The translations under genes and the position numbers were made by a program. Under the pieces are notes generated by a model. It searched no databases. It was not told the DNA's origin and was given only the letters and a program-made list of their open reading frames with translations. Shown here piece by piece: positions 25,746-64,000 of a stretch of 64,000 nt of DNA. The stretch covers positions 72 to 64,071 of the forward strand of contig CALJJZ010000044.1 of NCBI GenBank assembly GCA_937973635.1. The letters run 5' to 3'. Source of the stretch: an uncultured Bacillota bacterium. Lineage in GTDB: Bacteria; Bacillota; Dethiobacteria; DTU022; UBA8154. Numbering within the stretch: position 1 is the stretch's first letter; each line of letters starts with the position of its first letter.

Positions 25746-25775
25746 TTGACATAGCCGCTGTTCCGCCGTTATAAT
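25746..25775 (+). promoter_or_regulatory. Consensus sigma-A promoter TTGACA-18-TATAAT
   Basis: TTGACA at 25746-25751 and TATAAT at 25770-25775, upstream of the IclR-2 / NuoE-F-like operon. Confidence 0.6.
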
Positions 25776-25837
25776 CAGAAAAATAGAAAACATTTTCGCA
25801 TTGCGGAATATATTCTTTTAGGGGAGAGGTGTCAGCC

Positions 25838-26626: not shown

Positions 26627-26662
26627 AAATCCGGTTTCCGACTAAAAAAGGAGGGAAAGAAG

Positions 26663-27229: not shown

Positions 27230-27253
27230 CGGATCTGCCGGAGGGAGAAGATT

Positions 27254-29119: not shown

Positions 29120-29122
29120 GGA

Positions 29123-29806: not shown

Positions 29807-29848
29807 CACTTTAAAATATTGAAAAGATTTTAGAAAGGAGTATTGACC

Positions 29849-31432: not shown

Positions 31433-31496
31433 GCTGAAATTCTTCCAGAGCAGGCTGGATGGCGGGCGAAAAAGAATACAATGACTGTGGCATACA

Positions 31497-31525
31497 TTGA
31501 CAGCAAAAGATTACTTTTGTTATAT
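31497..31525 (+). promoter_or_regulatory. Sigma-A promoter TTGACA-17-TTATAT upstream of the LarA-like gene
   Basis: TTGACA at 31497-31502 and TTATAT at 31520-31525. Confidence 0.5.
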
Positions 31526-31610
31526 TTCTAGTGACCTTATTATGGCCCTTTGCCAGGTCGGATCACCGCCTGCTCAGCAAAAATGAACTTTGTTTATCTT
31601 CCAGTTTATA

Positions 31611-31642
31611 AGCGCTGCCGCAGAGAGGGCAGCGCTTTTTTC
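31611..31642 (+). terminator. Rho-independent terminator (AGCGCTGCC-gcagagag-GGCAGCGCT + TTTTTT)
   Basis: Nine-bp GC stem plus a T6 run between the GltB-like and LarA-like genes. Confidence 0.7.
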
Positions 31643-31687
31643 TACATGCCGTTAAGTGGCCAAAATTGAGCGGAAAGGGGTGGCGCC

Positions 31688-32929: not shown

Positions 32930-33101
32930 GGCAGGAAAGGTAAAAAAAATGTCAAATATAAATTATAAATGTATATTATTTCGTAATAATTAATATAGCA
33001 GTGCAAGGGGGTGAATAAGGATAATATATGAGACAATAGTAACGGGAAAGTTGTACGTGGGGGAATTTCCAGAAAAATTTATTTATAACAGGAGGTCAAC
33101 G

Positions 33102-34187
33102 ATGAAAAAGAAGGTTACGGTATTTTTACTTCTGGGGGCTATGCTGGCGCTGGCACTGGCCGGATGCGCCCAGCAGGCGGCGCCTGCTCCCGCTACACCG
33201 GGGGCTCCTGCTGCTGCCGCTCCGGAAAAGGTCTTTAACTGGCGAGCCCAGGGCATTTATACCCCTGGAGACCCGGGGCTGGAGATCCAGCAAGCTTTTG
33301 TGGACAGGGTCAAGGAGCTTTCCGGCGGTAGGCTTAATATCACGCTGCATCCCATTGGCGCCATCGTGGGACCTTTTGAGACCTTTGATGCGGTGGCCAC
33401 AGGGGTGCTGGAAGTAGGCATGAAAACCCCTATGTGGTGGGGCGGTAAAGAACCTGTATGCAACCTTTTGACCAGTCTCCCGGGCAGCTTTACCCATGCC
33501 TACCAGTTGGATGCCTGGTACTGGGAGCACGGCGGCATTGATATTGCCCGGGAAGCCTACGGCAGGCATGGTATCTATTTTGTTGGGCCGGCTATCTTCG
33601 GTGTTCCGCCTATTGGAGCCGAAGTGGTTCATTCCCGTGTGCCTATCCGCAGTATCGATGATTACAGGGGGCTGAAGGTCCGCAGCGGCGGCGCTGCTGC
33701 CAAATGGTTTGAGGGCCTGGGAGCCTCCATCGTCACTCTCCCCGGACCGGAGATCTACCCATCTCTGGAAAAGGGAGTTGTAGATGCTGCCGAATGGGTT
33801 TCTCCCAACTCCAACTATGCGTTGGGCCTGCATGAGGCTGCTCCCTATGTAATTATGCCCGGGCTACACACACCGCTGATGGCTTCTGAGGTTACAGTAA
33901 ATATGGAGGCCTGGAACTCGCTCCCCGATGACCTGAAGGCCATTATGGAGGTCGCCACCAAGGAGCTTTCCGTAAGAAAAGCTCAGAGGTTTGAAAACCT
34001 CGACCACTACTACCTTGATAAGATGAGGGAATACGGGGTGGAAGTAATCGAGTGGACGCCGCAGGAAATTGCCAGGGCGGCCCAGTATTCTATGACTCTG
34101 TTTGAAGGCTTTGCCACCGATGAACTTTCCAGGCGGGCCTTGGATTCCCAGTTAAATTATCTGCGGACGATCGGCGTTATCCAATAG
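33102..34187 (+). CDS. TRAP transporter substrate-binding lipoprotein (DctP family)
   Basis: Lipobox ALAGCAQ, DctP-fold motifs, and RBS AGGAGG 7 nt before the ATG. Confidence 0.85.
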   Translation: MKKKVTVFLLLGAMLALALAGCAQQAAPAPATPGAPAAAAPEKVFNWRAQGIYTPGDPGLEIQQAFVDRVKELSGGRLNITLHPIGAIVGPFETFDAVATGVLEVGMKTPMWWGGKEPVCNLLTSLPGSFTHAYQLDAWYWEHGGIDIAREAYGRHGIYFVGPAIFGVPPIGAEVVHSRVPIRSIDDYRGLKVRSGGAAAKWFEGLGASIVTLPGPEIYPSLEKGVVDAAEWVSPNSNYALGLHEAAPYVIMPGLHTPLMASEVTVNMEAWNSLPDDLKAIMEVATKELSVRKAQRFENLDHYYLDKMREYGVEVIEWTPQEIARAAQYSMTLFEGFATDELSRRALDSQLNYLRTIGVIQ

Positions 34188-34227
34188 CCTAAGTGCTGAA
34201 TAGTCTTAAGGACTGGAGGGCATCTCC

Positions 34228-34731
34228 TTGAAACCTCTGCTGACTGTAATAGACGCTATTTCCGAATACACAGGTAGGCTTTTTGCCTACCTGTGTATTC
34301 CAGTCATTGCCATCATCATGATCGAAGTAATAGGGAGATATTTCTTTACTCACCCCTTTATCTGGAGCCATGAATCTATGACTTTTACAAGCGCGGGTAT
34401 CTATCTTTTGGGTGGGGCTTATATTTTAAAAGAACGGGGACATATCAGCGTGGATCTGATTTATCGCTATCTGCCGGTCCGGGCAAAGGCGATTATGGAT
34501 CTTGTGGTGTCAGTTTTCTTTTTCATTTATATTTATGTCCTGTTGAAGGTAGGGATGAACTACGCTCTTACCTCGGTGCGCATCCTGGAGAAGAGCGGCA
34601 CGCCCTGGAATCCTCCCATCTATCCGGTAAAGCTTGCCATTGCTATTGCCACTCTCCTTATTTTCCTTGCCGGAATAGCTAATTTTATCCGTGACCTGAA
34701 GGTCGCCATTACAGGGAGGGAAGAGCTATGA
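34228..34731 (+). CDS. TRAP transporter small permease (DctQ)
   Basis: Four-TM protein of about 167 aa. Its stop overlaps the dctM start. Confidence 0.75.
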   Translation: MKPLLTVIDAISEYTGRLFAYLCIPVIAIIMIEVIGRYFFTHPFIWSHESMTFTSAGIYLLGGAYILKERGHISVDLIYRYLPVRAKAIMDLVVSVFFFIYIYVLLKVGMNYALTSVRILEKSGTPWNPPIYPVKLAIAIATLLIFLAGIANFIRDLKVAITGREEL

Positions 34732-36038
34732 GCATTGAACTTATTACCTTGTTTATGTTTGGCGGCCTCTTTCTTCTCCTGCTTTTGAATGTGCCTATCG
34801 CCTTTGCCACCGGTTCCATCGCTGTCATCAGTGCCTACCTTTTCTGGAGCCCCAAGGCGGTGAACCTCTTTCCCACTTCTGTTTACACTATGGTCACAAA
34901 TTATATCTTTGTAGCTGTCCCCATGTTTATCTTCATGGGTTCTGTCCTGGAGCGCTCCGGCATTACAGACTATCTTTACGAAGCAGTTTACCGCTGGGTT
35001 GGTTCTCTGCGGGGCAGCCTGGCCATGGCCACTGTGCTGGCGAGCATTATTATGAGCGCCATGGTGGGGGTGATTGGGGCTATTATTGTTAGCATGGGGT
35101 TAATTGCTCTTCCCTCTATGCTTAAACGGGGTTACGATAAAGGTATTGCCATGGGCAGCATTATGGCCGGCGGCGCCCTGGGTGTGCTTATACCGCCCAG
35201 CATTATGCTCATCATGTACGCTATGTGGGCGGGCCTCTCCATCAGGAAGATTTTTCTGGGGGCGATCATGCCCGGCTTGCTGCTGGGAGGGCTCTTCCTC
35301 GTCTATATTGCTGTAAGGTGCTATATTCAGCCCCACCTGGGGCCTGCATTGCCCAAAGAAGAGCGGATCCCCTTTAAAGAGAAGCTGAAATACTTAAAGG
35401 CGCTGATCCTGCCTGTTGCCCTTATCGTTTTTGTGCTAGGTTCCATCCTTACCGGTATTGCTGCCCCCACAGAAGCCAGCGGCATCGGGGCTTTTGGCGC
35501 CCTAGTATGCGCCGCCGTTTACCGCCGGCTGAACTGGGATCTTGTCAAAAATGCCTGTCTGAGCACCATCAGGCTTTCGGCAATGGTCATGTGGATCGGT
35601 TTTGGCGCTGTTATGTTTATCAGCACCTATAACGCCCTAGGAGGTGTCCAGTTCGTCCAGAACCTCATCCTTGCCCTACCGGTGCAGCCATGGGTCCTTT
35701 TGGTGGGGATGATGGCCATTGTCATTGCTCTGGGAATGATTATCGAATGGGTGGGGATTATTATGCTGGTGGTGCCGATTTTCCTCCCTATTGTAGCGGC
35801 CCTTGGCTTCGATCCCCTCTGGTTTGGGGTCCTTGTCTGTGTTAACCTGCAGATGGACGTGCTGACCCCGCCCTTTGGCTATGCCCTTTTTTACATGAAG
35901 GGTGTGGCGCCAAAGGAAGTTACTACGGCCGATATCTACCGGGCCTCCATTCCTTTTGCCCTTTTGCAGCTGACAGGCCTTATTTTATGCATGATCTTTC
36001 CCCAGATCATCCTCTGGTTGCCCAATTTGATGTACTGA
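34728..36038 (+). CDS. TRAP transporter large permease (DctM)
   Basis: Twelve-TM profile. DctM family length is 436 aa. Confidence 0.85.
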   Translation: MSIELITLFMFGGLFLLLLLNVPIAFATGSIAVISAYLFWSPKAVNLFPTSVYTMVTNYIFVAVPMFIFMGSVLERSGITDYLYEAVYRWVGSLRGSLAMATVLASIIMSAMVGVIGAIIVSMGLIALPSMLKRGYDKGIAMGSIMAGGALGVLIPPSIMLIMYAMWAGLSIRKIFLGAIMPGLLLGGLFLVYIAVRCYIQPHLGPALPKEERIPFKEKLKYLKALILPVALIVFVLGSILTGIAAPTEASGIGAFGALVCAAVYRRLNWDLVKNACLSTIRLSAMVMWIGFGAVMFISTYNALGGVQFVQNLILALPVQPWVLLVGMMAIVIALGMIIEWVGIIMLVVPIFLPIVAALGFDPLWFGVLVCVNLQMDVLTPPFGYALFYMKGVAPKEVTTADIYRASIPFALLQLTGLILCMIFPQIILWLPNLMY

Positions 36039-37618: not shown

Positions 37619-39712
37619 GTGAAAGGCATGACAAAGAGTAACGGCCAGTTGAAAGAAGGAGCCGGGGGGTTGCCTCCATGCCAGGTAGCCTGTCCCATCC
37701 ACCAGGAGGTAAGGGAATACCTGCGCTTTATTGCCACCGGTGATTTTGATCGTTCCCTGGAGGTAATTAAGCGGACCAGTCCCCTTTCTGCAGTGTGCGG
37801 CACGATCTGCGCCCACCACTGTGAGGACGAATGTCGCCGTCAGAATGTGGATGAGCCCCTCTCTATCCGCGGCTTAAAGAGGTCTGCCGTGGATTTTGGC
37901 AGCGCTGATTTTCCGGCACCTGTTCCCGTAGATGAAGGGAAAAAAGTGGCCATTATCGGTTCCGGCCCCGCGGGCATGACTGCCGCCTTTGACCTGGCTC
38001 TGCAGGGCTGCCGCGTCACCATTTTTGAGCGGGAGAAGGATTTTGGAGGCGCCCCGCGCAACTTTATTCCTCTTTACCGCCTTCCCGATGAAACCATTGA
38101 TCTGGATGTGGAGAATTTAAAGAAGCTCGGCGTGGAGTTTAGAGGCGGCGTGGAGTTTGGCAGCGATATTATGCCCGACGACCTGCGCAAAGAGGGTTAT
38201 AAGGCGATCCTGATCGCCGTGGGCCTGACTGCAAGCCGCGGCCTGCCGCTGCCGGGGGCGGACCATCAGGATGTATTGATGGCCCTTAATTTCCTCCGTG
38301 CCTCCAAAAGGGAGAATTTCCGCCTGGACGGAAGGGAAGTAATTGTTATTGGCGGCGGCAACGTGGCCATGGACGTAGCTCGTTCGGCGGTGCGTTGCGG
38401 CGCCGCCAAGGTGAGGCTGGCCTGCCTGGAGTCTGAAGCAGAGATGCCGGCTTTCTCCTGGGAGATTGAGGAGGCCAAAGAAGAAGGGGTAGAGATGAAC
38501 TGCTCCTGGGGGCCCACGGCGATCCGCGTAGAAAACGGCCGCATTACCGGCCTGGAGATGCATGAATGTACCTCTGTCTTTACCGACGGGCGCTTCAACC
38601 CCTGTTTTAACCCCGAGAACAAGAGCTTTATCCCCGGTGATACAGTCATCTTTGCCATCGGCCAGGCGCCTGACCTGAAAGCGGTAAGCAATGCCGGTAT
38701 CCCCCTTAACGAGCGTGGCCTCATGGAGTTTGACCCCTTCACTATGAAGACGCCGATACCAGACATTTTTGCCTGCGGCGAGATAGTAAACGGTCCAAGC
38801 ACCGCTGTTAAGGCTATGGCCCATGCCCGCGTGGCGGCCATGGCTATTTGCCATTATCTGGAAGGAAAGCCCTTTGTCGCCTCCATGGTGGAAGAGCAGG
38901 AAGCACTGCCCAAGCTGGCCGACGATGTGGCTGTGAAAGTAAAGAAGATCGCCCGGGCGGAGATCCCCCTCCTTACCCCGGAGGAGCGCTCTGCTAACTT
39001 TAAGCCGGTAGAAACGGGCTATACTATGGCTATGGCCGTCTGGGAGAGCCGCCGCTGTCTTGGCTGTGCCGCCGGTGCCGTACGCGTGGTGGAAAAATGC
39101 GCCGACTGCCTGACCTGCTTGCGTACCTGCCCCTACAACGTGCCTGTGGTCAGCGAGATGGGCGATCTCATGATCCGCGACCACCAGTGCCAGGCCTGCG
39201 GGCTTTGCCTTACGGTCTGCCCCAACCTTGCCATAGATTTCCGTACCCCGTATATTACGGAAGCGGAAGAGCGGCTGGAAGCTGTTGCCGGCGAGCTGGT
39301 GGCTTCACGCAATGGGAAGCCCCTGATTATGGTCCTTTCCTGCGCCCTCGGTGCTTACGCCCTGCCCGAGTTCCGCCAGGATTTCATGCAGCAGAAGCCG
39401 GCCAATGTGGGGGTAGTCCGTTTTCCCTGTATCTCCAAGATCGATACCACCCATATCCTCAAGGCTTTCCAGCTTGGTGTTGACAGCGTGGTGGTAGCGG
39501 GCTGCGCTTCTGACGAAGCCGATGACTGTCCTTTCCAGAAGACCATGTACTGGGCGGAGCAGCGCGTCAGCCGCGCAAAATCCCTGTTACAGGAAGCGGG
39601 TCTGGAAGGGGAACGGGTGGCCCTTTTAAGCTTTACCCCGGAACAGGTGGCGAACTTTAAAGAGGCCATTGCCGATACCCTGGTGCAGCTGGAAGGACTG
39701 GGACGGCGCTAG
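37619..39712 (+). CDS. GltD-like NAD(P)H:FAD oxidoreductase (N-terminal 2x[4Fe-4S]) fused to a 2x[4Fe-4S] ferredoxin and an MvhD/FlpD-like domain
   Basis: CQVACPIHQEV...CGTICAHHCEDECRR (GltD N-terminus), two dinucleotide-binding motifs (IIGSGPAGMTAA, VIGGGNVAMD), CPYNVP...CQACGLCLTVCP, then the MvhD pattern (VVRFPCISKID...VVAGCASDE..CPF). Confidence 0.8.
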   Translation: MKGMTKSNGQLKEGAGGLPPCQVACPIHQEVREYLRFIATGDFDRSLEVIKRTSPLSAVCGTICAHHCEDECRRQNVDEPLSIRGLKRSAVDFGSADFPAPVPVDEGKKVAIIGSGPAGMTAAFDLALQGCRVTIFEREKDFGGAPRNFIPLYRLPDETIDLDVENLKKLGVEFRGGVEFGSDIMPDDLRKEGYKAILIAVGLTASRGLPLPGADHQDVLMALNFLRASKRENFRLDGREVIVIGGGNVAMDVARSAVRCGAAKVRLACLESEAEMPAFSWEIEEAKEEGVEMNCSWGPTAIRVENGRITGLEMHECTSVFTDGRFNPCFNPENKSFIPGDTVIFAIGQAPDLKAVSNAGIPLNERGLMEFDPFTMKTPIPDIFACGEIVNGPSTAVKAMAHARVAAMAICHYLEGKPFVASMVEEQEALPKLADDVAVKVKKIARAEIPLLTPEERSANFKPVETGYTMAMAVWESRRCLGCAAGAVRVVEKCADCLTCLRTCPYNVPVVSEMGDLMIRDHQCQACGLCLTVCPNLAIDFRTPYITEAEERLEAVAGELVASRNGKPLIMVLSCALGAYALPEFRQDFMQQKPANVGVVRFPCISKIDTTHILKAFQLGVDSVVVAGCASDEADDCPFQKTMYWAEQRVSRAKSLLQEAGLEGERVALLSFTPEQVANFKEAIADTLVQLEGLGRR

Positions 39713-47813: not shown

Positions 47814-49178
47814 GTGGTTAAGTGGGAGAAAATAGACACCAACAAAATATCCCTGGAGATCACTGTCCCTGAGAATGAAGTAAATAAAGCCCTGGAGCAG
47901 GCTTACCTAAAGCTGCGGGGGAGATTTATCATCCCTGGTTTTCGTAAAGGCAGGGCACCGCGTAAAATTATCGAATCCCGCTACGGCAATGAAATATTTC
48001 ACGAAGAAGCCCTGGATATACTGGCGGATCCTGCTTACCGGCAAGCGATCAAAGAGGCGGAGCTGGAGCCTATTGGCCAGCCTGAAGTGGAATCTATTGA
48101 GCTGGAAAAAGATAAGCCGCTGGTGATGAAAGTGCTTGTGGAGGTCAAGCCCGAGGTTAAACTTGGCGAGTATAAAGGGGTCAGCATTGAACAGGAGATA
48201 AAGGAGATTACGGCAGAGGATGTGGAAAAATACCTTGAGTCTTTGAGAAGCCAGCACGCCCGCCTCGTGGCCATCGAAGAGGGCGAGCTGCAGGACAAAG
48301 ACCTGGCCTTGATAGATTTTAAGGGGACTATCAACGGGGAGCCGTTTCAAGGCTCGGAGGTGGAGAACTATTCCCTGCAGATTGGGTCCAGCACTTTTAT
48401 TGCAGGCTTTGAAGAACAGCTAGTGGGCGCAAAAAAGGGCGAAAAGAGGGAGTTAAAAGTAACTTTCCCCGAAGATTACCACAATAAAGAATTGGCAGGC
48501 AAAGAAGCGGTCTTTTCCGTAGAGGTAAAGGAGATCAAGAGGCCCCAGCTGCCGGAACTCGATGATAATTTTATTCAGGAACTTACAGAGGATTTTTCAA
48601 ATGTAGAGGATTTCCGGGCAGACGTAGAGAAAAGATTAAAAGAAGACCTGCAAAAGCGTCAAAAATTTGAGCTGGAAAGCAGGATCATAGAAAAAGTGGC
48701 TGCAGCGTCCGAGGTGGAGGTCCCTGCTACCCTGGTGGAGCGGGAGGTCGATAACCTCATGGGAGAGTTTGAATACTTCCTGCGCATCCAAGGGATAACC
48801 CTCGACCAGTATGCGCAGATCGTCGAGGGCGGCAAGGAGCAATTAAGGGCGGAGCGGCGCCCGGAGGCGGAAAAACGGGCCCGGGCCAACCTGGTACTTG
48901 ATGCTATCATTAAGGCGGAAAAAATTGAAGCAAGGGAAGAGGAGATCGATGGACGTATCCGTGAGATGATGGAGAAGTTTAAAGTGCAGGATTCCTTTGC
49001 TGAGATCCGGGAAAAATTTGCCCGGGACGGGCGCCTGGATATGATTAAACACGAGATCCGTTACCGTAAAGCCATTGATCTGCTGGTGGATAACGCCAAT
49101 ATTATCCCTGTGGCTCCTGAACAGCTACAGGAGAAGACAGAGGAAAAAGTCGCAGAAGAAGACAAGGGAGCAAAGTAA
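47814..49178 (+). CDS. tig: Trigger factor (ribosome-associated PPIase chaperone)
   Basis: N-terminal ribosome-binding motif [12 protein letters not shown] domain, and C-terminal arm domain. Confidence 0.9.
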
Positions 49179-51080: not shown

Positions 51081-51220
51081 GTAACTCCGGGGTGGCTCCA
51101 GGGAGTCACCCTTTTTTTCTAAACCAACCGCCCTGTGGCCCTTAAGTGATTATTTGCTCCGTTTCCGGTAATAATAGAGAGAGATATGTCAGCTTCTTAT
51201 ACGGAAAGGGAGTGAAAGCA

Positions 51221-52903
51221 TTGCCTGGTTGGTTAGGCGTGCTCGGTGTGGTGCAGGTTGTCTTTGCCATTGTGGTGGGAGCTTATTTCTGGAACCTTTT
51301 TAAAAACCAGCGTGGCCATAAAATGGTGGTGGGAAGGGATTCTTCCCGTGAAATGGAGGAGCTGAAGCGTCTCAGAGCCCTTTCCCTGACTGAACCGCTG
51401 GCAGAGAAGGTCCGCCCTGCTTCATTTGCCGAGATAATTGGGCAGGAGGACGCCATTAGGGCCCTGCGTGCTGCCATGTGCGGTCCCAATCCCCAGCATG
51501 TGCTCCTTTACGGTTCACCGGGCGTGGGTAAAACAGCGGCGGCAAGGCTTGTCCTGGAGGAGGCGAAAAGAAACGAGCTTTCGCCTTTCGGCAGGGAGGC
51601 ACCTTTTGTGGAAGTGGATGCGACTACACTCCGCTTTGACGAGAGGGGCATCGCCGACCCCCTCATGGGAACGGTGCACGACCCCATCTACCAGGGGGCC
51701 GGGCCTCTGGGTATTGCCGGCATCCCTCAGCCGAAACCGGGGGCGGTAACAAAGGCGCATGGCGGGATCCTTTTTATTGACGAAATCGGTGAGCTTCACC
51801 CCATCCAGATGAACAAGCTGTTAAAGGTACTGGAGGATCGCAAAGTTTTTTTGGAAAGCGCCTATTATAACAGGGATGACCGCAATGTGCCCCGCCATAT
51901 TCACGATATATTTCAAAATGGCCTGCCTGCAGATTTTCGCCTGATTGGGGCAACGACACGCCAGCCGGAAGAGCTCCCCCCGGCGATACGTTCCCGTTGT
52001 CTGGAGATATTTTTCCGGGATCTTTCGCCGCAGGAAATAGGCGCCATCGCCGCAAATGCGGCAAGGCGCGTCCATTTTACCCTGGACCCTGGGGCCTTAG
52101 AGGTGGTCATGACCTTTGCCCAGAATGGCAGGGAAGGAGTAAATATGGTTCAGATTGCTGCAGGGATAGCTCAGACCGAAGGGAGAAAAACCCTGGAGGT
52201 GGAGGAGATGGAATGGGTGGTCAACCACAGCCGCCTGGCTCCACGTCTGGAAAAAAGGATTCCTCCTGCACCCCAGGTCGGGCTGGTTAATGGCCTAGCT
52301 ATGGTGGGGCCGCAGCGAGGCGCCCTGTTGGAGATCGAAGCTGCCGTTACCCCTGCTGTGGGGGGCAGAGGGCGTCTCAGTATAACCGGGATAGTGGATG
52401 AAGAAGAGATGGGCACCCTGGGCCGTACGCTGCGCCGTAAAAGTACGGCCCGCGGTTCGGTAGAGAACGTCATTACGGTCCTTTCTGTGCTTCTGCACAA
52501 AAATATGGACGATTATGACATCCACCTCAATTTTCCCGGAGGTATGCCTGTGGACGGGCCTTCGGCGGGGGTGGGTATTGCGCTGGCCGTGTATTCGGCC
52601 CTGCAGGGTATTCCTGTGGATAATACCGTGGCCTTAACCGGCGAGCTCTCTATCCGGGGCCTGGTTTGCCCTGTGGGCGGAGTAACGGGGAAGGTAGAAG
52701 CGGCCCGTCAGGCCGGGGCCAAAAAGGTTTTAATTCCGGAAAAAAACTGGCAGCATTGTTTTGAAAAGATAACAGGGATCAGGATCATTCCTGTATCCCA
52801 TATCCGGGAAGTTTTCCAGCATGCCCTACTGGAAAGGGGCTCCCTTGCCCCGGCCCGGGAGCAAAAGGGGATTATTCCTGTAAATACGCTGGCTACAAAC
52901 TAA
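51221..52903 (+). CDS. lonB: LonB-type ATP-dependent protease (membrane-anchored, sporulation-associated Lon paralog)
   Basis: N-terminal TM, AAA+ Walker A GSPGVGKT, and C-terminal Lon protease domain with catalytic Ser (DGPSAGVGIA). Sits between clpX and lon as in Bacillus. Confidence 0.8.
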   Translation: MPGWLGVLGVVQVVFAIVVGAYFWNLFKNQRGHKMVVGRDSSREMEELKRLRALSLTEPLAEKVRPASFAEIIGQEDAIRALRAAMCGPNPQHVLLYGSPGVGKTAAARLVLEEAKRNELSPFGREAPFVEVDATTLRFDERGIADPLMGTVHDPIYQGAGPLGIAGIPQPKPGAVTKAHGGILFIDEIGELHPIQMNKLLKVLEDRKVFLESAYYNRDDRNVPRHIHDIFQNGLPADFRLIGATTRQPEELPPAIRSRCLEIFFRDLSPQEIGAIAANAARRVHFTLDPGALEVVMTFAQNGREGVNMVQIAAGIAQTEGRKTLEVEEMEWVVNHSRLAPRLEKRIPPAPQVGLVNGLAMVGPQRGALLEIEAAVTPAVGGRGRLSITGIVDEEEMGTLGRTLRRKSTARGSVENVITVLSVLLHKNMDDYDIHLNFPGGMPVDGPSAGVGIALAVYSALQGIPVDNTVALTGELSIRGLVCPVGGVTGKVEAARQAGAKKVLIPEKNWQHCFEKITGIRIIPVSHIREVFQHALLERGSLAPAREQKGIIPVNTLATN

Positions 52904-52965: not shown

Positions 52966-55326
52966 TTGGGAGAGCTTATAGAATTGCCGTTACTGCCCCT
53001 GCGCGGGGTCATTGTCTTTCCCCATCTTGTCCTGCATCTTGATGTGGGCAGGGAACGTTCGGTTAGGGCTCTGGAAGAAGCGATGATGCAGAATAACGTT
53101 ATTTTGCTGGTGGCACAGAAAGAGGCAAGGGTAGATGACCCTGCGCCGGAAGATCTTTTTGAAGTGGGGACTATTGCCAGAATTAAACAGATGTTGAAAC
53201 TGCCCGGCGGCACCATGCGTATCCTTGTGGAGGGAATCAAACGTGCCCGCCTCGAAAAAGTAACGGAACAGGAACCCTATTTTAAAGCGCTGGCTGCCGA
53301 GGTGGAAGAAGAAGAGGCTGATCAGGCGGAGACGGAAGCGTTGATGCGCTATGTCCTGCAGCAATTTGAACATTATATTAAATTAAGTAAGAAAATTCCC
53401 GCCGATGTCCTCGCTAATGTTTCAAGCATTACTTTACCCGGAAGGCTGGCCGATGTTATCGCCTCCCATTTAAGCCTGAAGGTCGAACAAAAGCAGGAGG
53501 TTCTTGCGGCTTTTTCCCCGGTGACGCGCCTGGAAGTGCTGGCGGATCTGTTGAACCGGGAGATGGAGATCCTGGAACTGGAGAAAAAGATCGGCCTGCG
53601 TGTGCGCAAACAGATGGAGAAAACGCAGAAGGAATATTACCTGCGGGAACAGGTTAAGGCCATACATAAGGAACTGGGAGAGGCGGATGAGCGTTTGGCT
53701 GAAGCCAACGAATACCGGGAGAAGATCGCTGCGGCCAAACTGCCGGAAGAAGTGGAGAAAAAAGCGCTTAAAGAAGTGGAACGGCTGGAAAAAATGCCTC
53801 CTGCCGCGGCGGAAGCTGCCGTTATACGCACATACCTGGATTGGTTGCTGGAGCTGCCCTGGGTTTTTCAGACGGAAGACCGCCTGGAGCTTGATGTAGT
53901 GGAGCAGGTTCTGGATGAAGACCATTACGGACTGGAAAAGGTTAAAGAACGTATCGTGGAATACCTGGCGGTACGCCGCCTTACGCAAAAAATTAAAGGG
54001 CCTATCCTCTGTTTGATTGGCCCTCCGGGTGTGGGTAAAACTTCCCTGGCCCGTTCTATAGCCCGGGCCCTGCAGCGCAAGTTTGTACGCATATCCCTGG
54101 GCGGTGTGCGCGACGAGGCGGAGATACGCGGCCATCGCCGCACCTATGTGGGGGCTCTGCCTGGGCGTATTATTCAGGGGATCCGCCAGGCCAAATCCCG
54201 CAACCCTGTTTTCCTGCTTGATGAAGTGGATAAGATGTCCACAGATTTTCGCGGCGACCCTTCTGCTGCCCTGCTGGAAGTCCTGGATCCTGAACAAAAC
54301 AATTCTTTCAGCGACCATTACATCGAGATCCCCTTTGACCTTTCCCAGGTTATGTTTATTACCACGGCCAACAATCGTTATAATATACCTCAACCTCTCC
54401 TTGACCGTATGGAGGCAATCTATCTACCTGGCTACACGGAGGAGGAGAAAGTTAAGATCGCTCAGCGCCACCTTATTCCCAAGCAGCTGGAGGAAAACGG
54501 CCTGACGGGAAAAAACCTGCGTATCTCGGAAGGGACGCTGCGTTATATTGTCAGGGAGTATACACGGGAAGCGGGGGTACGTAACCTAGAACGGGAGCTG
54601 GCTGTGCTCTGCCGCAAGACGGCAAGGCAGGTGGTAGAAAATAATGACTATCACCTGACTGTGACCCGCAGCAATCTGCATAAATACCTGGGGCCGCCTC
54701 GCTTTCGTTTTGGGCTGGCAGAAAAGGGGAACGAGGTCGGTGTGGTGACGGGCGTGGCCTGGACAGAAACGGGCGGTGATCTACTGGCCATTGAAGTTAC
54801 GCTGATGAAAGGCAAAGGGAAACTTATTTTGACAGGTAAGCTGGGTGATGTGATGCAGGAATCGGCCCAGGCCGCCCTCAGCTATGTTCGTTCCCGTGCT
54901 GCCGACTTTGGCATACCTGCAGATTTCCATGAAGAATACGACCTACACATCCATATACCGGAAGGAGCTATTCCTAAAGACGGCCCTTCTGCAGGTGTAG
55001 CTATGGCCACAGCCATGATCTCTGCCCTGACCCGCACTCCGGTTAACCACTTTGTAGCCATGACCGGAGAGATTACCCTGCGCGGCCGTATTTTACCCGT
55101 GGGCGGCATTAAAGAAAAGATTCTGGCGGCGCACCGGGCGGGCATAAAAACGGTTATTTTGCCGCAGGACAATAAAAAGGACCTTTTAGAGATACCTAAA
55201 AATGTACGGCGCCGCCTAGAATTTGTGTTAGTAGAGCACCTGGATCAGGTCTTGCCGAGGGCCCTGCTTAGTGAGGAGAAGTATGAAACCGAAGCAAGTA
55301 GAGCTATGTCAGTCAGCCAGGGATAA
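52966..55326 (+). CDS. lon: ATP-dependent protease La (LonA)
   Basis: LON N-domain, AAA+ (GPPGVGKTS), and S16 protease domain ([10 protein letters not shown]). Confidence 0.9.
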
Positions 55327-55906
55327 GCGCGGGTTGCCATCTTTGACCTGCCCGGAGATCGCCCTGGTGGGGCGCTCCAATGTGGGGAAGTCTTCCCTGA
55401 TTAATACATTGGTGCAGCGCCGCAATCTTGCCCGTACAAGCAATACACCGGGCAAGACGAGGGCGATCTATTTCTACCTTGTTGATGGCAAGTTTTTCCT
55501 CGTTGATCTGCCCGGCTACGGCTATGCCCGTGTATCCCGGGAGCAGCAACGTGAGTGGAAAAACCTTGTGGAAGCCTATCTGGATAAGCGCAAAGGATAC
55601 GCCATGCTTTTGCAGGTGGTGGACCTGCGCCACCCGCCCTCGGAGGCAGACAGGCAGATGGCCAATTGGATCCGTCATTTCGCCTATCCTTGGCGCGTCG
55701 TGGCCACTAAGGCGGACAAGGTGCCGCGGGGCCGTCGTTTAAATCAGCTGAAAATAATCGCCGCCGGGCTGGAGGTAGATCCGGCGGGGATCATTCTTTT
55801 TTCATCCAGCTCTGGTGAAGGCAAAGATCTTTTATGGGGGGCTATTCTGGATGAATTGGGAAACATGGCAAAGGGCGACGCCGGTAGCGCAGTCACACCA
55901 GGATGA
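55283..55906 (+). CDS. engB: Ribosome biogenesis GTPase YsxC/EngB
   Basis: G1 [10 protein letters not shown]3 DLPGYG, G4 TKADK. Confidence 0.85.
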
Positions 55907-57011
55907 AAGGCAGCGGGAAGAGTATCTTGAGCTGCTGGAAAGGGAAGAAGAGCATACCAGATCTCAGCTGGAAAAAATTGCCTGGCTGTGCAGCTATACG
56001 CCGGTGGAAATTATCGCTGCCTGCGGCCTAGTGCCTTATCGCCTGCTTGCCGCAGAGGGGCAGACGCTGCGGGCAGATACGATCCTTCACCCCACCCTTT
56101 GTTCTTACGTGCGCGGGGCCCTGGAAAATGCCCTGGCCATAGATGCCCGGACCCTGCAGGGTGCTGTCCTGCTGAACTCCTGTAATGCTGCCGGCCACCT
56201 GCAACATGCCCTGGCTGCGCTGTATTCTCAGAAATTTCAATATTTTTTGGATTTACCCCACAGCAACTCTGATGCAGCAATATATTTTTGGGCCAATGAG
56301 CTGCGCCAGTTTCATGAGACCCTGGCCTGCTACCGTGGTATCCCCGTATGTTTAGACGCGCTGCAACAGCAGATGGATCTTTATCGCATAAATCGGGAGC
56401 GCCTGGCCGCCCTCTACGCCGACAGAAAAGGAGAAGTCTTTGTAAGGGGCAGCGCCCTGGCGCGGCTTGTCCAGGCCTCCATGGTAATACCGGCAGCCCG
56501 TTTTGCGAAAGTGCTCGACCTTTTTGAAGCCTTTGCAGAAGAGCAAAAGGAGAGGGGCAAATATTATGGGGGGCCGCGTCTTTTTTTGCTGGGCAGTATT
56601 ATGGGGGCGGCAACAATGGAAATTATTGAAACAGAGGGCGGTATCCTGGTCCTTGACGACCTCTGCACGGGATACCGGGCCGTCAATTTTAAGGCAGTGC
56701 CGCCGGGGGGGGCAGAGAGCCCCTATCTTTCCCTGGCCCGTTTTTACCTGGGGCGTTCTCCCTGTGCGCGGATGAAAGATTCTTTTGCCGCCCTTGACCG
56801 GCTGGAGCAACTGCTCCTTGATTACAGGATCGACGGCGTAATCCTTTATTACTTGAAATTTTGTGATCCCTGGTATTACCTGGGGCAGCTGCTTAAAGAA
56901 AGAATCAAACATATACCGGTGCTGATCCTGGAGGGGGAATATACCGGCACAGGGAGGAGCGGCCAGTTGCGAACCCGCATTGCGGCATTTCTGGAGATGC
57001 TTAAGGCATAA
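55851..57011 (+). CDS. 2-hydroxyacyl-CoA dehydratase-family (HGD-D / BcrBC-like) subunit, substrate unknown
   Basis: HGD-D family hallmarks: YTPVEIIAACGLVP, DLCTGYR, YLKFCDPWYY. The start is uncertain and overlaps the engB 3' end. Confidence 0.7.
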   Translation: MNWETWQRATPVAQSHQDERQREEYLELLEREEEHTRSQLEKIAWLCSYTPVEIIAACGLVPYRLLAAEGQTLRADTILHPTLCSYVRGALENALAIDARTLQGAVLLNSCNAAGHLQHALAALYSQKFQYFLDLPHSNSDAAIYFWANELRQFHETLACYRGIPVCLDALQQQMDLYRINRERLAALYADRKGEVFVRGSALARLVQASMVIPAARFAKVLDLFEAFAEEQKERGKYYGGPRLFLLGSIMGAATMEIIETEGGILVLDDLCTGYRAVNFKAVPPGGAESPYLSLARFYLGRSPCARMKDSFAALDRLEQLLLDYRIDGVILYYLKFCDPWYYLGQLLKERIKHIPVLILEGEYTGTGRSGQLRTRIAAFLEMLKA

Positions 57012-57045
57012 AAATCTTATGGGTGTCCAGGGGGGAAGTGTCAGG

Positions 57046-58314
57046 ATGGTTATGGACGGGTTAAAAGCAAAAACTTTGTACAGTTTAGGCCGGCAGTTAC
57101 TGCGCCACCCCTTTTTTTATTTCCTCTGCCAGCAGGCGATCCGTCATGGCTTAGTCAAGTACCCCTATGCGGCCAGGCGCATGCTCATCGATTACGGTCT
57201 GGGGCAGATCAAGGAAGCTTTCCAGCACAGTGATAAGCTAGTCTGGAGCAGCGCTTTTTTCCCTACGGAAATACTTTACGCCCTGGGTGTTACCCATTTT
57301 TCACCGGAGGTTGCTTCGGCTGTCACGGCTTCTTTAGGTTTCCAGGAGCAGTTTCTGGCAGCGGCGGAAAGCCGCTGGTGGGGACGGGACAATTGTTCTT
57401 TTCACCGCTGCGCCATGGGCGGCGCCTTCCTGAATTTCTTTCCCCAAGCAAAAGCTTTTTGTGCAAGCACGCACCTCTGTGATGGGGCTGTTTTGCTCTT
57501 CAACAACCTGGCAGCCCGTTACCGCCGCCCGTTTTTGCTGCTGGATACGCCGCTAAAGCAAGACCGGGGTGCGCTTAACTATGTCATCCAACAGCTCAGG
57601 AGCATCATTGCTTCGCTGGAAGAATATAGCGGAAAAAAAATGCAGGCACACCGGCTGGAGGAAGCCGTTGCCCATGCCGAAGCGGCACGTCAGGCACTGG
57701 TTGAAGTGAACCGCTTGCGCCGGGAACCCCTTTCGCCCTTCAGCACCCGGGATGCCGTCGCTTTCCTCTATCTCTATTTCAACGGCCTGGGCAGCCCTGT
57801 GACACCGCGTATTTATCATACGCTGGCGGAAGAATTGCAGGAGAAGATAAATGCTGCGGCAGAAGCTTCCCTTCGTCCGCCCCGCATACGGCTGCTCTGG
57901 TTGCATATCCCGCCCCTGTACCGCAGCAATAATAACATGCTGGCTTATCTGGAAGCAAAGGGCGCCAGGGCTGTGTTTGAAGAATTCAGTCATGTTTACT
58001 GGGAACCCATGGATCCGGCCAGGCCCCTCGAATCCATTGCCAGGCGGATGCTCTCCCATTTTATTTATGGTCCCGTGGAGCGGCGTTTAAAAGCCATTAA
58101 AAGGATGGTAGAGGATTTAAAGGTGGATGGTGTTATCCATTTTTCCCACTGGGGTTGCCGGCAAAACTGCGGGTCAGTTAAGGCTATTCGTGATTATCTG
58201 AAACAGGAAGACATCCCTTTGTTGCTGCTGGACGGCGACTGCATTGACAGCCGCAACTATGCCTTCGGGCAGGTGCAAACGCGCATCGACGGTTTTCTGG
58301 AGATGCTGGCGTAA
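57046..58314 (+). CDS. 2-hydroxyacyl-CoA dehydratase-family (HGD-D) subunit, second
   Basis: FPTEILYALGV, conserved Cys positions (CSFHRC, FSHWGCRQNC). A paralog of the preceding gene. Confidence 0.7.
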   Translation: MVMDGLKAKTLYSLGRQLLRHPFFYFLCQQAIRHGLVKYPYAARRMLIDYGLGQIKEAFQHSDKLVWSSAFFPTEILYALGVTHFSPEVASAVTASLGFQEQFLAAAESRWWGRDNCSFHRCAMGGAFLNFFPQAKAFCASTHLCDGAVLLFNNLAARYRRPFLLLDTPLKQDRGALNYVIQQLRSIIASLEEYSGKKMQAHRLEEAVAHAEAARQALVEVNRLRREPLSPFSTRDAVAFLYLYFNGLGSPVTPRIYHTLAEELQEKINAAAEASLRPPRIRLLWLHIPPLYRSNNNMLAYLEAKGARAVFEEFSHVYWEPMDPARPLESIARRMLSHFIYGPVERRLKAIKRMVEDLKVDGVIHFSHWGCRQNCGSVKAIRDYLKQEDIPLLLLDGDCIDSRNYAFGQVQTRIDGFLEMLA

Positions 58315-58359
58315 ATGAAGAAAAATGCCGTATAAAGGGCTTAAGGGAGGTAGATAAAT

Positions 58360-59133
58360 ATGCCAGTTGCAGGAATGGATATCGGTTCCCTGTCCACGGA
58401 AGTGGTGATCCTGGATCAAGAGCATAAGCATATTATTGCGGCGGTTATTCTCCCCACCGGCGCCAGCAGCAAAACGGCCATCAACCGGGCTATGGAAGAA
58501 GCTTTGCGGCAAAGCGGGCTTTCTTTTGCTCAGCTGGAACGCATTGTGGCTACAGGATACGGGAGAGTAAGCGTCCCTTTCATCCATGAAAAGGTAACGG
58601 AGATAACCTGCCACGGCCGGGGAGCTTACCACCTGGACCCGTCGGTACGCACCGTAATCGATATAGGGGGACAGGACAGCAAGGTAATCTGTCTGAATGC
58701 CCAGGGTAAAGTGGTCGATTTTCTCATGAACGAAAAGTGCGCCGCGGGGACAGGTCGTTTTCTGGAAGTTATGTGCCAGGCCCTGGAGGTGGACTTAAAC
58801 GACTTTTCCCGCCTGGCTGCTCAAACGAACAAAACGGTTCCCATCAGCAGCATGTGTACAGTCTTTGCTGAATCTGAAGTTGTCTCCCTGATTGCTGAAG
58901 GCTATCCCCGGGAACAGATTATCCGGGGTATTATTGCCTCTATTGTGGAACGGACGGAACTTATGGCCAACCGTATCGGCATCGTCGGCAAAGTGATGAT
59001 GACCGGCGGCGTAGCCAAAAACAGGGCGGTAGTGGAGGCCTTACAGGAAAAACTGGGGGTGAAAATAATAGTGCCCCAGGAACCGCAAGTGGTAGGGGCC
59101 CTGGGCGCTGCCTTGCTGGCTGCGGAAATGTAG
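58360..59133 (+). CDS. CoA-substrate-specific enzyme activase (HgdC/BcrAD-type ATPase, [4Fe-4S]-bridged)
   Basis: ASKHA fold (GMDIGSLSTEVV, DIGGQDSK, CAAGTGRFLE). RBS AAGGGAGG before the ATG. Confidence 0.8.
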   Translation: MPVAGMDIGSLSTEVVILDQEHKHIIAAVILPTGASSKTAINRAMEEALRQSGLSFAQLERIVATGYGRVSVPFIHEKVTEITCHGRGAYHLDPSVRTVIDIGGQDSKVICLNAQGKVVDFLMNEKCAAGTGRFLEVMCQALEVDLNDFSRLAAQTNKTVPISSMCTVFAESEVVSLIAEGYPREQIIRGIIASIVERTELMANRIGIVGKVMMTGGVAKNRAVVEALQEKLGVKIIVPQEPQVVGALGAALLAAEM

Positions 59134-59190
59134 GGGAGAGGGGAAAATATATGTATTTTCCTATTTCAGGAAGGGCAGGTTGGCAGAAAA

Positions 59191-60339
59191 GTGGATAAAA
59201 AAAATATTTTCCGAGAATTAGATGCCGGGGAGCTGCTTTTCAGCGAGGGCGACGAAGGTTGGGAGATGTTCATCGTAATCAGCGGATCCGTGCAGGTCTT
59301 CTTGTTGCGGGATGGTTTGCAAATAATCCTTGCTAACCTGGGGCCCGGCCATTTTTTTGGTGAGATGTCTTTGCTTGAAGGAGAGACGCGCAGTGCCAGC
59401 GTTGCCGCAGATAAACCCGCCAAGCTCCTGGTAATCAACCATGACAATTTTCAGCAATTTATTTGCTCTAATCCCTCGCTGGCTGTTAAGCTGATGAAGG
59501 GCTTAAGCGGCCGCTTGCGTAGGAGCAATGAGCAGATCACCCGCATGGAGAGCGAATTGCTCTTGCACGGGAAAAAAATGCAGGAACCGGAAGGGGAGGA
59601 AAGCAAGGCCGCGGTGGGCTTGTTCAATGAGCTTTCTGCCGATGAACTGGAGCGGCGGCTGCGCAGAAGCCTGCAGAGCGCCCATATCCATCAGATGAGC
59701 TGTCCCGTTTGTCATAATAACTTTAAAAGCTATATTCTCCAAGATAAGAATTTAACGAAGCATACCAGGGATTTTTGGCTCCGTGACCGCTACGAAGGCC
59801 TTGAACCATTACTTTTCCGCAATGTGTGCTGCCGCCGCTGCTTTTTTGCCGCCCCAGCGGAGAGTTTTTTAGAGATCGGGCAGTTGCAGAAAGAGAGGCT
59901 GAAGAACGAAGAGAGGATGCGGCGCAGCAAAGTTGCCTTGCCGGAAGAGGAGGGAGTTGATTACGACCATGCCATCGGCCATTACAGGCTTGCCCTTTTA
60001 TGCCTGGAAGATACGGACAATAACCTCTCCCTCCTGGCCCGGCTTGCCCTGGAGCTTTCCTGGTTGTGCCGGGAAGCGGGGAAAAGCGAAGCAGAGGGCG
60101 AAGCTTTGCGGCAGGCTGGCGAGTACCTTGAAAGGGCTGCAGAAAGGCTGACCCTGAGCAATGTAGAAAAACAAAACAACCTTTACTTACAGGGTTTGGT
60201 TAATTTACGCCTGGGAGATCTGGAAAGGGGCAAAGATCTGCTAGGGCAAGCCCTTTCTGCCAAGGAGCTAACCGTAGTGCGGCTGATGGCCCATCAGATT
60301 ATGGAAAAAATAAAGGAGAACCAGCCTTTGCCCCTCTAA
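59191..60339 (+). CDS. cNMP-binding-domain protein with Cys-rich/TPR-like C-terminal domain of unknown function
   Basis: N-terminal cyclic-nucleotide-binding fold (FGEMSLLEGETRSASVAA). The C-terminal approximately 230 aa contains CPVCHNNF...CCRRCFF and helical repeats. Confidence 0.55.
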   Translation: MDKKNIFRELDAGELLFSEGDEGWEMFIVISGSVQVFLLRDGLQIILANLGPGHFFGEMSLLEGETRSASVAADKPAKLLVINHDNFQQFICSNPSLAVKLMKGLSGRLRRSNEQITRMESELLLHGKKMQEPEGEESKAAVGLFNELSADELERRLRRSLQSAHIHQMSCPVCHNNFKSYILQDKNLTKHTRDFWLRDRYEGLEPLLFRNVCCRRCFFAAPAESFLEIGQLQKERLKNEERMRRSKVALPEEEGVDYDHAIGHYRLALLCLEDTDNNLSLLARLALELSWLCREAGKSEAEGEALRQAGEYLERAAERLTLSNVEKQNNLYLQGLVNLRLGDLERGKDLLGQALSAKELTVVRLMAHQIMEKIKENQPLPL

Positions 60340-62112: not shown

Positions 62113-64000
62113 ATGAGCGTTAATCTGCCGTCAGTTTATGATCCTGAAAAAGTAGAAGATAAAATTTACCAGTTTTGGCTTGCCGGTGATTTTTTTCGGG
62201 CGCTGCGGGTAAAAGGAAAAAAAACCTTTACCATTGTCATCCCCCCGCCCAATGTCACCGGTTCTTTACACATGGGCCATGCTCTGGATAACACCATCCA
62301 GGATGTCCTGATCCGCTGGCGCCGTATGCAGGGCCTCGACACGCTCTGGCTTCCCGGCACGGATCACGCCGGGATTGCCACGCAAAATAAAGTGGAGGAA
62401 CACCTGGCGGCGGAGGGCCTTACCCGCCATGACCTGGGCCGGGAGAAGTTTCTGGAGCGGGCCTGGAAATGGAAAGAGGAGTACCACGGGCGGATTGTCA
62501 GGCAGCTCCATAAACTGGGCGTTTCCTGCGACTGGTCGAGGGAACGCTTTACCCTGGACGAAGGTTGTTCCCGGGCTGTGCGCGAGGTCTTTGTTTCCCT
62601 TTATGAACGGGGCCTCATTTACCGTGGCAATTATATGATTAACTGGTGTACCCGCTGCCACACGGCCCTTTCGGATATTGAGGTGGAGCACGAGGAGAAA
62701 GCATCCACCCTTACCCATATCTCCTATCCGGGTGTGAGCTGGGAAGGATCTATTACCGTGGCCACCACGCGGCCTGAGACCATGCTTGGCGATACGGCTG
62801 TTGCCGTTAACCCGGAAGACCCCCGCTACAGGGATTTGATCGGGCGCAGGGTGCTGCTGCCCCTCCTGAACCGGGAGATTCCGATTATTGCCGATGCCTA
62901 TGTGGATCCCGCCTTCGGTTCCGGGGCGGTGAAGATTACGCCGGCCCACGACCCCAACGATTTTGAAATTGGCAGGCGCCATAACCTGGAAATGGTCGTG
63001 GCCATTGGTGAAAACGGGCTGATTACAGAGGGAATGGGCCCCTATGCAGGGATGGACCGCTATGCGGCCCGCCGTGTTATTGTGGATGACCTGAAAAAAG
63101 GCGGTTATCTGCAAAAAATAGAGGATTATACCCATGCTGTAGGTCACTGTCAGCGCTGCGGGACGGAAATCGAACCTCTCCTGTCCCTGCAGTGGTTTGT
63201 GTGCATGCAGCCGCTGGCCGGACCGGCCATTGAGGCGGTGACGCAGGGGCGCATCAGCTTTGTGCCCGAGCGCTTTACCCGTCCCTACCTGCATTGGATG
63301 GAAAATATCCGGGATTGGTGCATCTCGCGGCAGATCTGGTGGGGGCACCGTATTCCGGCCTGGTACTGTCCGTGCGGGGAGATGATCGTATCCAGGCAGG
63401 ACCCCGTTGCCTGTCCGTCCTGCGGCGGAGAGAAACTGGAGCAGGACCCCGATGTTCTTGATACCTGGTTCAGTTCGGCCCTCTGGCCTTTTTCTACGCT
63501 GGGCTGGCCGGAAAAAACGCCGGACCTGGAGCATTATTTCCCCACCAGCGTTCTGGTAACAGGCTATGATATTATTACTTTTTGGGTTTCGCGCATGATC
63601 TTTATGTCCCTGGAATTCATGAAAGATATTCCTTTTTCCCATGTCGCCGTACATGGCCTGGTGCGCGACGCCCAGGGCCGTAAGATGAGCAAATCTTTGG
63701 GTAATGGGGTAGATCCCCTGGAAGTAATCGAAGCTTTTGGCGCAGACACATTGCGGTTCACCCTAGTAACCGGCCAATCTCCGGGCAGTGACCAGCGCTT
63801 CCGGCCGGAAAACGTAGCCGCCAGCCGCAACTTTTCCAATAAAATCTGGAATGCCTCCCGTTATGTGCTCATGAACCTGGAAGGTTACCGTCCGGCGGCA
63901 GCGTTGCCGCCTGATCTGGAGCGCCGTGACCGCTGGATCCTGGACCGTTTAAATGATGTTACGGCAAAAACTACAGCATTGCTGGAAAACTACGAGCTGG
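62113..64000 (+). CDS. valS: Valyl-tRNA synthetase (N-terminal approximately 630 aa; continues past window end)
   Basis: HIGH motif ([15 protein letters not shown]) and class-I editing/CP1 region. Open to the end of the window. The 462-aa ORF on the opposite strand is antisense. Confidence 0.9.

Follow-up and report, generated by a model that had tools for sequence, protein, structure and literature searches.

The window analysed here is a stretch of 64,000 nucleotides from an uncultured Bacillota bacterium of the Dethiobacteria lineage (contig CALJJZ010000044.1 of assembly GCA_937973635.1). On its forward strand it carries a module of three adjacent genes, which encode two HGD-D proteins, here called subunits A and B, and an activase ("archerase"). 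According to the list of open reading frames (ORFs) and to Pfam and NCBIfam scans, the module is preceded by tig, clpP, clpX, the gene for a LonB-like protease, lon and engB, and is followed by a gene for a protein with a cNMP_binding and a DUF2225 domain. Downstream of the latter, bioY and birA lie on the opposite strand. Pfam confirmed the two HGD-D paralogs, the activase and the downstream cNMP gene of a first-pass annotation of this DNA, and the span given there runs from the start of A to the stop of the cNMP gene (Table 1). A and B are paralogs with 23% sequence identity. The arrangement of A, B and activase is real and far beyond chance.

Table 1. Positions of the module, of its neighbours and of other features in the window.
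Feature	Position	Strand	Length and evidence
Subunit A, HGD-D paralog	55851-57011	+	386 aa; Pfam HGD-D (PF06050), E = 3e-63
Subunit B, HGD-D paralog	57046-58314	+	422 aa; Pfam HGD-D (PF06050), E = 8e-69
Activase	58360-59133	+	257 aa; Pfam BcrAD_BadFG (PF01869), E = 2e-64
cNMP_binding + DUF2225 protein	59191-60339	+	382 aa; Pfam cNMP_binding 1.5e-23, DUF2225 4.8e-31
engB (YsxC-type GTPase)	55283-55906	+	207 aa gene call on identical contig; Pfam MMR_HSR1 1.5e-21
lon	52966-55326	+	
LonB-like protease	51146-52903	+	
tig	47814-49178	+	
AMP-binding enzyme fragment	34-747		
4HBT thioesterase	2070-3002		
IS200-like transposase gene	12496-13164		Y1_Tnp
Separate cluster with gdh and LarA-like gene	23286-36038		
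Glutamate dehydrogenase gene gdh	24295-25587		
NuoF-like flavoprotein	27254-29119		
LarA-like protein	31688-32929		Lar_N
Flavoprotein-FlpD fusion	37619-39712		697 aa; Pyr_redox_2, 4Fe-4S, FlpD
ORF without Pfam match	62266-63654	-	462 aa

Start sites were fixed by the N-termini of homologs, by gene calls and by ribosome-binding sites. The start of A is backed by the N-termini of its orthologs (MNW/MKW...) and by a G-rich ribosome-binding site, and the activase gene is preceded by a strong GGGAGG site. The first-pass annotation had described a tight unit with overlapping starts and stops. This applies to the junction with engB, whose 3' end overlaps the 5' end of A by 56 nt (55851-55906), but to no other junction from engB to the cNMP gene: A and B are separated by 34 nt, B and the activase gene by 45 nt, and the activase and cNMP genes by 57 nt. 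Each junction has a ribosome-binding site.

Subunit A has the cysteine pattern of a double-cubane protein. In BzdN, a subunit of the BZD-type class I benzoyl-CoA reductase BzdNO(PQ) from Aromatoleum sp. CIB (PDB 8S02), the [8Fe-9S] double cubane is ligated by Cys36, 73, 100, 263, 293 and 327 (PMC11971306). In HMMER alignments Cys47, 84, 111, 272, 305 and 338 of A align with these six residues. All six were invariant in 20 orthologs (40-68% identity), and all surveyed members of the wider family had the six-Cys pattern. HadC and MbdN read PCCACC and -CCFYC at these positions, i.e. two and three of the cysteines are missing, respectively. BzdN has four basic residues near its distal subcluster, and three of them (Arg53, Arg267 and Arg290) are matched by R64, R276 and R302 of A. 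With the AlphaFold2 model of A (predicted local distance difference test, pLDDT, 92.7), Foldseek retrieved BzdN (8s02_B) first from the PDB, followed by DCCP and HadC; by sequence, the best PDB match was DCCP (6ENO/7YYL), followed by BzdN. The seventh, non-ligand Cys of DCCP is absent from A. The top NCBIfam model of A was NF040772 "double_cubane" with 141 bits (cut-off 350); the models for BzdN (TIGR03190), BcrC and HadC (NF052456) gave 77, 73 and 56 bits with cut-offs of 454, 421 and 700. On the basis of the aligned residues and the modelled fold, A is predicted to carry an [8Fe-9S] double-cubane cluster.

Subunit B has a different set of ligands. In BzdO, the catalytic [4Fe-4S]-OH2 cluster is held by Cys95, 128 and 380 (PMC11971306). 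Cys117, 145 and 371 of B align with these residues and with the ligands of HadB, and they were invariant in 87 homologs. The three positions that would serve the second subcluster lack Cys in B, which therefore cannot bind a double cubane. The invariant Glu88 of B, part of a "PE" motif shared with HadB, lies one position off BzdO Glu65 in the HMMER alignment. With the AlphaFold2 model of B (pLDDT 94.1), the Foldseek search of the PDB gave HadB first (3o3m_A; template modelling score, TM, 0.82/0.87), followed by BzdO (0.80), MbdO, DCCP (0.73) and then accessory subunits. By sequence the best PDB match was again DCCP (6ENO/7YYL), followed by HadB and BzdO. NF040772 was also the top NCBIfam model of B (96 bits, cut-off 350); the HadB model NF052455 gave 88 bits (cut-off 750) and the BzdO model TIGR03191 50 bits (cut-off 449). 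From these alignments and models we expect B to bind a [4Fe-4S] cluster through three cysteines with one iron site open, and B is probably the substrate-binding subunit. Loss of the cluster ligands, which the first-pass annotation had named as a finding that would speak against its proposal, did not occur: six ligand cysteines are intact in A and three in B. B contains two further cysteines, Cys122 and Cys375, five and four residues past the ligands Cys117 and Cys371. The resulting pattern CCCACC is kept in the subgroup made up of Dethiobacteria, Actinomycetota and Syntrophobacterales, not family-wide; these cysteines could lie near the unique iron.

The third protein passes the NCBIfam model TIGR00241 "acyl-CoA dehydratase activase" with 272 bits (cut-off 125). 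Its closest solved relatives are about equally close, namely MbdQ (8e-66), HadI (5e-64), HgdC and DCCP-R (6e-55). Its two Cys motifs, NEKC and SSMC, were conserved in six orthologs. Only one activase gene is present here and in all orthologous loci, and because of this single gene the protein is presumably a homodimer, an ATPase of the ASKHA fold which bridges one [4Fe-4S] cluster. The locus thus encodes what characterizes the BCR/HAD/DCCP superfamily (IPR010327 / PF06050 with a PF01869 partner), i.e. HGD-D subunits with cluster cysteines and an ASKHA activase with cluster cysteines. The proposal of an activase-dependent radical or redox unit of the HGD-D family is borne out by the domains, by the TIGR00241 score and by the conserved cysteines.

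A search with A retrieved about 24 proteins that form a tight group (41-68% identity), after which identity dropped to 35% or less. B is better conserved than A; its orthologs were 53-76% identical, and a second tier at 35-45% identity included proteins from cultured Desulfallas, Moorella glycerini, Desulfothermobacter and Thermanaeromonas. In GTDB contigs with one genome per species the tight group was represented by four loci only, all of them from metagenome-assembled genomes (MAGs) of Dethiobacter, Dethiobacteria or Bacillota. A HMMER scan of 1.84 billion cluster representatives yielded 1696 relatives of B with E <= 1e-3, 237 of which reached E <= 1e-30, and one single full-length relative with more than 50% identity. 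Some relatives of B (P0219, P0256, P0284, P0306 and P0351) are the C-terminal part of longer proteins of 785-802, about 1528 and 2004 aa, presumably fusions with A-like, activase-like or other domains.

To survey the architecture of such loci, 88 fetched loci were compared with phmmer and their Cys columns were scored. Three types were found. In type (i), that of the window, a six-Cys A is combined with a three-Cys B which has Ala, Gly or Ser at the position of the BzdO histidine, and with one activase. This type also occurs in Neomoorella carbonis, Halanaerobiaceae, Atribacterota, Syntrophobacterales, Spirochaetota and Myxococcales; the fetched flanks of the Actinomycetota loci of type (i) showed no activase gene next to A and B. 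Type (ii) is BzdNOPQ-like, with a six-Cys A, a B with the histidine and, where the locus extends far enough, mostly two activase genes. Type (iii) corresponds to the Syntrophorhabdus-type benzoyl-CoA reductase, in which A has three cysteines (S/T-C-C-S-x-C) and mostly two activase genes are present.

In neighbour-joining trees (100 bootstraps) the Dethiobacteria clade was recovered with 91% for A and 99% for B. The type (i) B subunits were monophyletic with 96% support, with HadB, BzdO and DCCP outside. BzdN and BzdO grouped with other loci and not with the clade of the window. DCCP branched near the base of type (i) in neighbour-joining trees without bootstrap, and the mean distance of B to DCCP was smaller than that to HadB or BzdO. 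The phylogeny of both subunits had been set beforehand as a refutation test; no clustering with an enzyme of defined substrate was observed, the family of B standing apart at the bootstrap value given above. Within the limited coverage of the library, no characterised member of the type (i) family was found in the literature searched. The module belongs to a distinct, uncharacterised family that is spread over many anaerobic phyla.

The neighbourhood of the module was compared among relatives, with annotation reaching up to 10 kb to either side. The order tig-clpP-clpX-lonB-lon-engB-A-B-activase-...-bioY-birA-valS is also found in relatives whose A is as little as 43% identical, but only Dethiobacteria-like Bacillota share the position behind engB. 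One MAG of Dethiobacteria (L007/L008) has A, B and activase in an unrelated neighbourhood. Conversely, GCA_016841605.1 and GCA_012728375.1 (L093 and L094) have an identical tig-clpPX-lonB-lon-engB...bioY-birA-valS backbone without the module. Here the cNMP/DUF2225 gene follows directly after engB (7001-8164 in L093, 7001-8167 in L094), which marks the slot between engB and bioY as an indel hotspot. The same gene is absent from the module-bearing loci L002, L004, L006 and L089, and the space between activase and bioY contains either this gene, an MFS transporter gene or nothing. All four combinations of presence and absence of the module and the cNMP/DUF2225 gene were thus seen in the slot; therefore the two occupy a variable slot of the conserved backbone independently of each other. 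Between engB and bioY-birA, the module forms an optional insert in Dethiobacteria-like Bacillota; genomes of Dethiobacteria that carry it include GCA_020725665.1 and GCA_900198705.1. Since the backbone exists without the module, and the cNMP gene with or without it, neither linkage is functional evidence.

Several suggestions of the first-pass annotation that were built on position had to be given up. It had taken the overlap with engB as an argument for co-transcription with growth-related genes. However, this overlap is confined to the closest relatives, with gaps of 80-147 nt in more distant orthologous loci, and the backbone also exists without the module. For these reasons, and because the module lies elsewhere in one MAG, we rejected a functional connection with engB and the protease block. 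A role of the cNMP/DUF2225 protein, which has about 15 full-length homologs at 42-75% identity, as sensor or partner was likewise discarded, its gene being present or absent independently of the module. A hydroxyglutarate pathway via gdh and the LarA-like gene was dismissed as well, as these genes lie 24-30 kb upstream, were found beside the module in no relative with annotated flanks and show no synteny with it. In view of the gene order of B. subtilis, the placement of the module at the "hemA position" of Bacillus is presumably another coincidence of position.

With the start at 55283 that was called for engB on the identical contig, lon and engB (together 52966-55906) would also overlap, by about 44 nt. 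The lon/engB overlap is present in relatives too and, together with the engB/A overlap, it forms a chain of overlapping genes in the closest of them. A scan for promoters and terminators found sites no more numerous than in shuffled sequence. The module showed no anomaly of composition (GC content 0.52-0.54, as in the surroundings), and no flanking repeats were found as a sign of insertion; the only notable repeat was a C-terminal motif common to A and B.

The neighbours in the wider family differ from locus to locus. When neighbouring ORFs of 39 wider-family loci were clustered all against all, the only families shared were A, B and the activase, and association with neighbours gave no information on function. 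Visual inspection of the sequences suggested QueG-like and PspC-like genes as neighbours in Atribacterota, TetR or MarR regulators in some loci and RuvA in Neomoorella; in Desulfallas, precomputed Pfam annotation indicated radical S-adenosylmethionine (SAM) and molybdenum cofactor genes. According to the same kind of annotation, A, B and activase of Moorella glycerini (L091, 7950-11063) are flanked on one side by a nif-type cluster (two P-II genes, three Oxidored_nitro genes, one radical SAM gene and one homocitrate-synthase-like gene) and on the other by MtnA-like, PNP_UDP_1 and AdoHcyase genes of methylthioadenosine salvage; this adjacency may be a coincidence.

Genes for the handling of coenzyme A (CoA) esters are missing from these surroundings. 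Essentially all ORFs in the window with 200 aa or more were scanned with Pfam, and none of them matched a CoA-transferase, acyl-CoA dehydrogenase, enoyl-CoA hydratase or 2-hydroxyacid dehydrogenase. The only CoA-related matches in the window, the AMP-binding enzyme fragment and the 4HBT thioesterase, are more than 52 kb away from the module. Neither a CoA-transferase nor a 2-hydroxyacid dehydrogenase was found in the annotated flanks of the relatives or among the families shared across the 39 loci. The earlier remark that no CoA-handling gene is nearby therefore holds for the flanks.

Judging from the sequence motifs and the models, A, B and the activase probably form an ATP-dependent enzyme of two components, which carries out low-potential redox or radical chemistry, belongs to the BCR/HAD/DCCP superfamily and has a predicted cofactor layout of the BzdNO type. 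In such an enzyme, the homodimeric activase would accept an electron from reduced ferredoxin or flavodoxin and, upon ATP hydrolysis, would inject it into the A/B heterodimer. The six-Cys [8Fe-9S] double cubane in A would relay, and probably store, electrons. The three-Cys [4Fe-4S] cluster in B, with one iron not ligated by protein, would lie beside a pocket that replaces the lost second subcluster, and the substrate bound there would be reduced or turned into a ketyl-type radical. ATP-driven injection of low-potential electrons via a double cubane into a substrate-binding [4Fe-4S] site is the function that we regard as most likely. BzdNO, the only characterised double-cubane heterodimer, accumulates electrons through its double cubane for a two-electron reduction (PMC11971306). 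Because of this, and by analogy, we favour a net reductase over a redox-neutral dehydratase. To our knowledge, all solved proteins of the fold type of B bind acyl-CoA, and the modelled fold class alone would suggest a thioester as the substrate. On the other hand, the persistent lack of CoA-handling neighbours leaves room for a non-CoA substrate.

Several observations weigh against this interpretation. A single homodimeric activase is the arrangement of the dehydratases, where it serves catalytic activation, and of DCCP, not of BzdNOPQ, and it would also be compatible with a redox-neutral radical reaction. His131 and Tyr97 of BzdO are replaced by Ala148 and Phe119 in B, and therefore the chemistry of the site should differ from a Birch reduction; in A, Trp341 takes the place of BzdN His330. 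No ferredoxin or CoA-ligase gene adjoins the module, so that neither the electron donor nor the thioester substrate has contextual support. The cluster types are deduced solely from aligned cysteines and predicted folds. Finally, the grouping of the A subunits of the wider family was monophyletic with a weak bootstrap value of 30%.

Three other assignments have to be weighed against a distinct redox enzyme of this kind. The module could encode a genuine 2-hydroxyacyl-CoA dehydratase of the HgdAB/HadBC/FldBC/LcdAB type whose genes for CoA-transferase and dehydrogenase lie in another part of the genome, but this appears quite unlikely to us. The (R)-2-hydroxyisocaproyl-CoA dehydratase HadBC with HadI (PDB 3O3M, 4EHT) is, like the module, a heterodimer with a single homodimeric activator. 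HadB, the best fold match of B, has the three Cys ligands found in B and a small residue (Val, compared with Ala in B) in place of BzdO His131, and the single activase gene, whose product passes TIGR00241, parallels hgdC and hadI. In contrast, A has all six ligand cysteines, whereas HadC has four of the six, three of which bind a single cluster, and forms no double cubane; the single three-Cys cluster of the dehydratase beta subunit, a [4Fe-4S] cluster, has been called [4Fe-5S] (PMC11971306). A and B miss the equivalog cut-offs for HadC and HadB about tenfold, and the B family is split from HadB by the well-supported node described above. Characterised 2-hydroxyacyl-CoA dehydratases cluster with genes for a CoA-transferase and a 2-hydroxyacid dehydrogenase; hadA and ldhA-type genes are not among the neighbours of the module, and neither the window ORFs scanned nor the relatives' flanks and the 39-locus families contained either function. 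Thus the label "2-hydroxyacyl-CoA dehydratase-like" in the first-pass annotation is too narrow: it fits the two HGD-D subunits, the one activase and the HadB-like fold of B, but it does not agree with the six-Cys motif that A shares with BzdN and DCCP, nor with the HadB and HadC cut-offs. A BZD-type class I aryl-CoA (benzoyl-CoA-like) reductase, dearomatising an aromatic thioester, is in our view very improbable, although BzdNO is the only characterised heterodimer with such a cofactor layout (PMC11971306). The two systems have much in common: both consist of two HGD-D paralogs, BzdN being the best fold match of A and sharing its six-Cys [8Fe-9S] motif, BzdO sharing with B its three cysteines for an open-site [4Fe-4S] cluster, and both rely on an ASKHA activase for ATP-dependent electron input. 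Yet the sequence identity between them is only about 21-25%, the His131 and Tyr97 of BzdO are not kept in B, and the scores for TIGR03190 and TIGR03191 are far below the cut-offs of about 450. BzdNOPQ has two activase subunits, BzdP and BzdQ, and the surveyed loci with a His131-type B that reach far enough downstream mostly have two as well, whereas the module has one. Furthermore, BzdN and BzdO are placed with other loci in both trees, and the Pfam scans of the window ORFs detected no dienoyl-CoA hydratase, ferredoxin or benzoate-CoA ligase gene, and no other bzd pathway gene, near the module.

As the remaining alternative, the module could encode a DCCP-like reductase whose substrate is a small molecule or something other than a CoA ester; the heterodimer would then be a diverged DCCP dimer. 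DCCP and its reductase DCCP-R from Carboxydothermus hydrogenoformans resemble the module in having a single adjacent activase and an orphan context (PMC7317905). DCCP contains the six-Cys double-cubane motif found in A, and it is the best PDB sequence match of both subunits, just as NF040772 is the top NCBIfam model of both. It also branches beside the type (i) family in the trees without bootstrap and is closer to B by mean distance than HadB or BzdO. However, the DCCP homodimer is built from a single protein whose motif contains seven cysteines, six of which are ligands, whereas the module encodes two diverged paralogs, of which A lacks the seventh Cys and B lacks one subcluster and hence the means to hold a double cubane. 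The NF040772 scores of both remain well under the cut-off, and the predicted fold of B is nearer to the CoA-ester-binding HadB and BzdO (TM 0.80-0.87) than to DCCP (0.73). We consider this assignment unlikely, and prefer a separate ATP-dependent redox or radical enzyme with a BzdNO-type arrangement of predicted clusters.

Beyond the module and its neighbours, the window contains several other features. The separate cluster that includes gdh and the LarA-like gene encodes, in this order, an IclR regulator, glutamate dehydrogenase, a second IclR protein, the NuoF-like flavoprotein, a 2Fe-2S/4Fe-4S protein, a protein with a glutamate-synthase-like domain, the LarA-like protein and a DctP/DctM TRAP transporter. 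It is probably catabolic and not linked to the HGD-D module. The fusion protein of 697 aa joins a Pyr_redox_2 (HdrA/GltD-like) flavoprotein and 4Fe-4S domains to a C-terminal FlpD (MvhD-like) domain, which suggests a module of the electron-bifurcation type. An IS200-like transposase gene is also present. As valS is expected on the forward strand just after birA by synteny with relatives, the ORF without Pfam match on the reverse strand is probably a spurious antisense ORF.

Much is known about the BCR/HAD/DCCP superfamily and its mechanism, and our prediction is one at the sequence level in a superfamily rich in uncharacterised members. What is new is the predicted combination, seen in motifs and models and in a clade of its own, of a BzdN-type double cubane, a HadB-like catalytic subunit and a single activase. 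We know of only two solved proteins with an [8Fe-9S] double cubane, BzdN and DCCP, the latter of unknown physiological role. The locus and its relatives (Moorella-type, Atribacterota, Actinomycetota and other anaerobes) point to a third, phylogenetically separate double-cubane family. Possibly, this widespread heterodimeric family with a six-Cys A, a three-Cys B and one activase, never seen beside CoA-handling genes, acts on a substrate outside those of the known dehydratases and aryl-CoA reductases, perhaps a non-CoA metabolite or an intermediate related to a cofactor or to repair; this bolder idea we regard as rather unlikely. If it were true, it would mean a second physiological role of the [8Fe-9S] cluster beyond the reduction of benzoyl-CoA. 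If the prediction of a third family is confirmed, the module would offer a tractable three-gene target for finding other uses of ATP-driven double-cubane chemistry.

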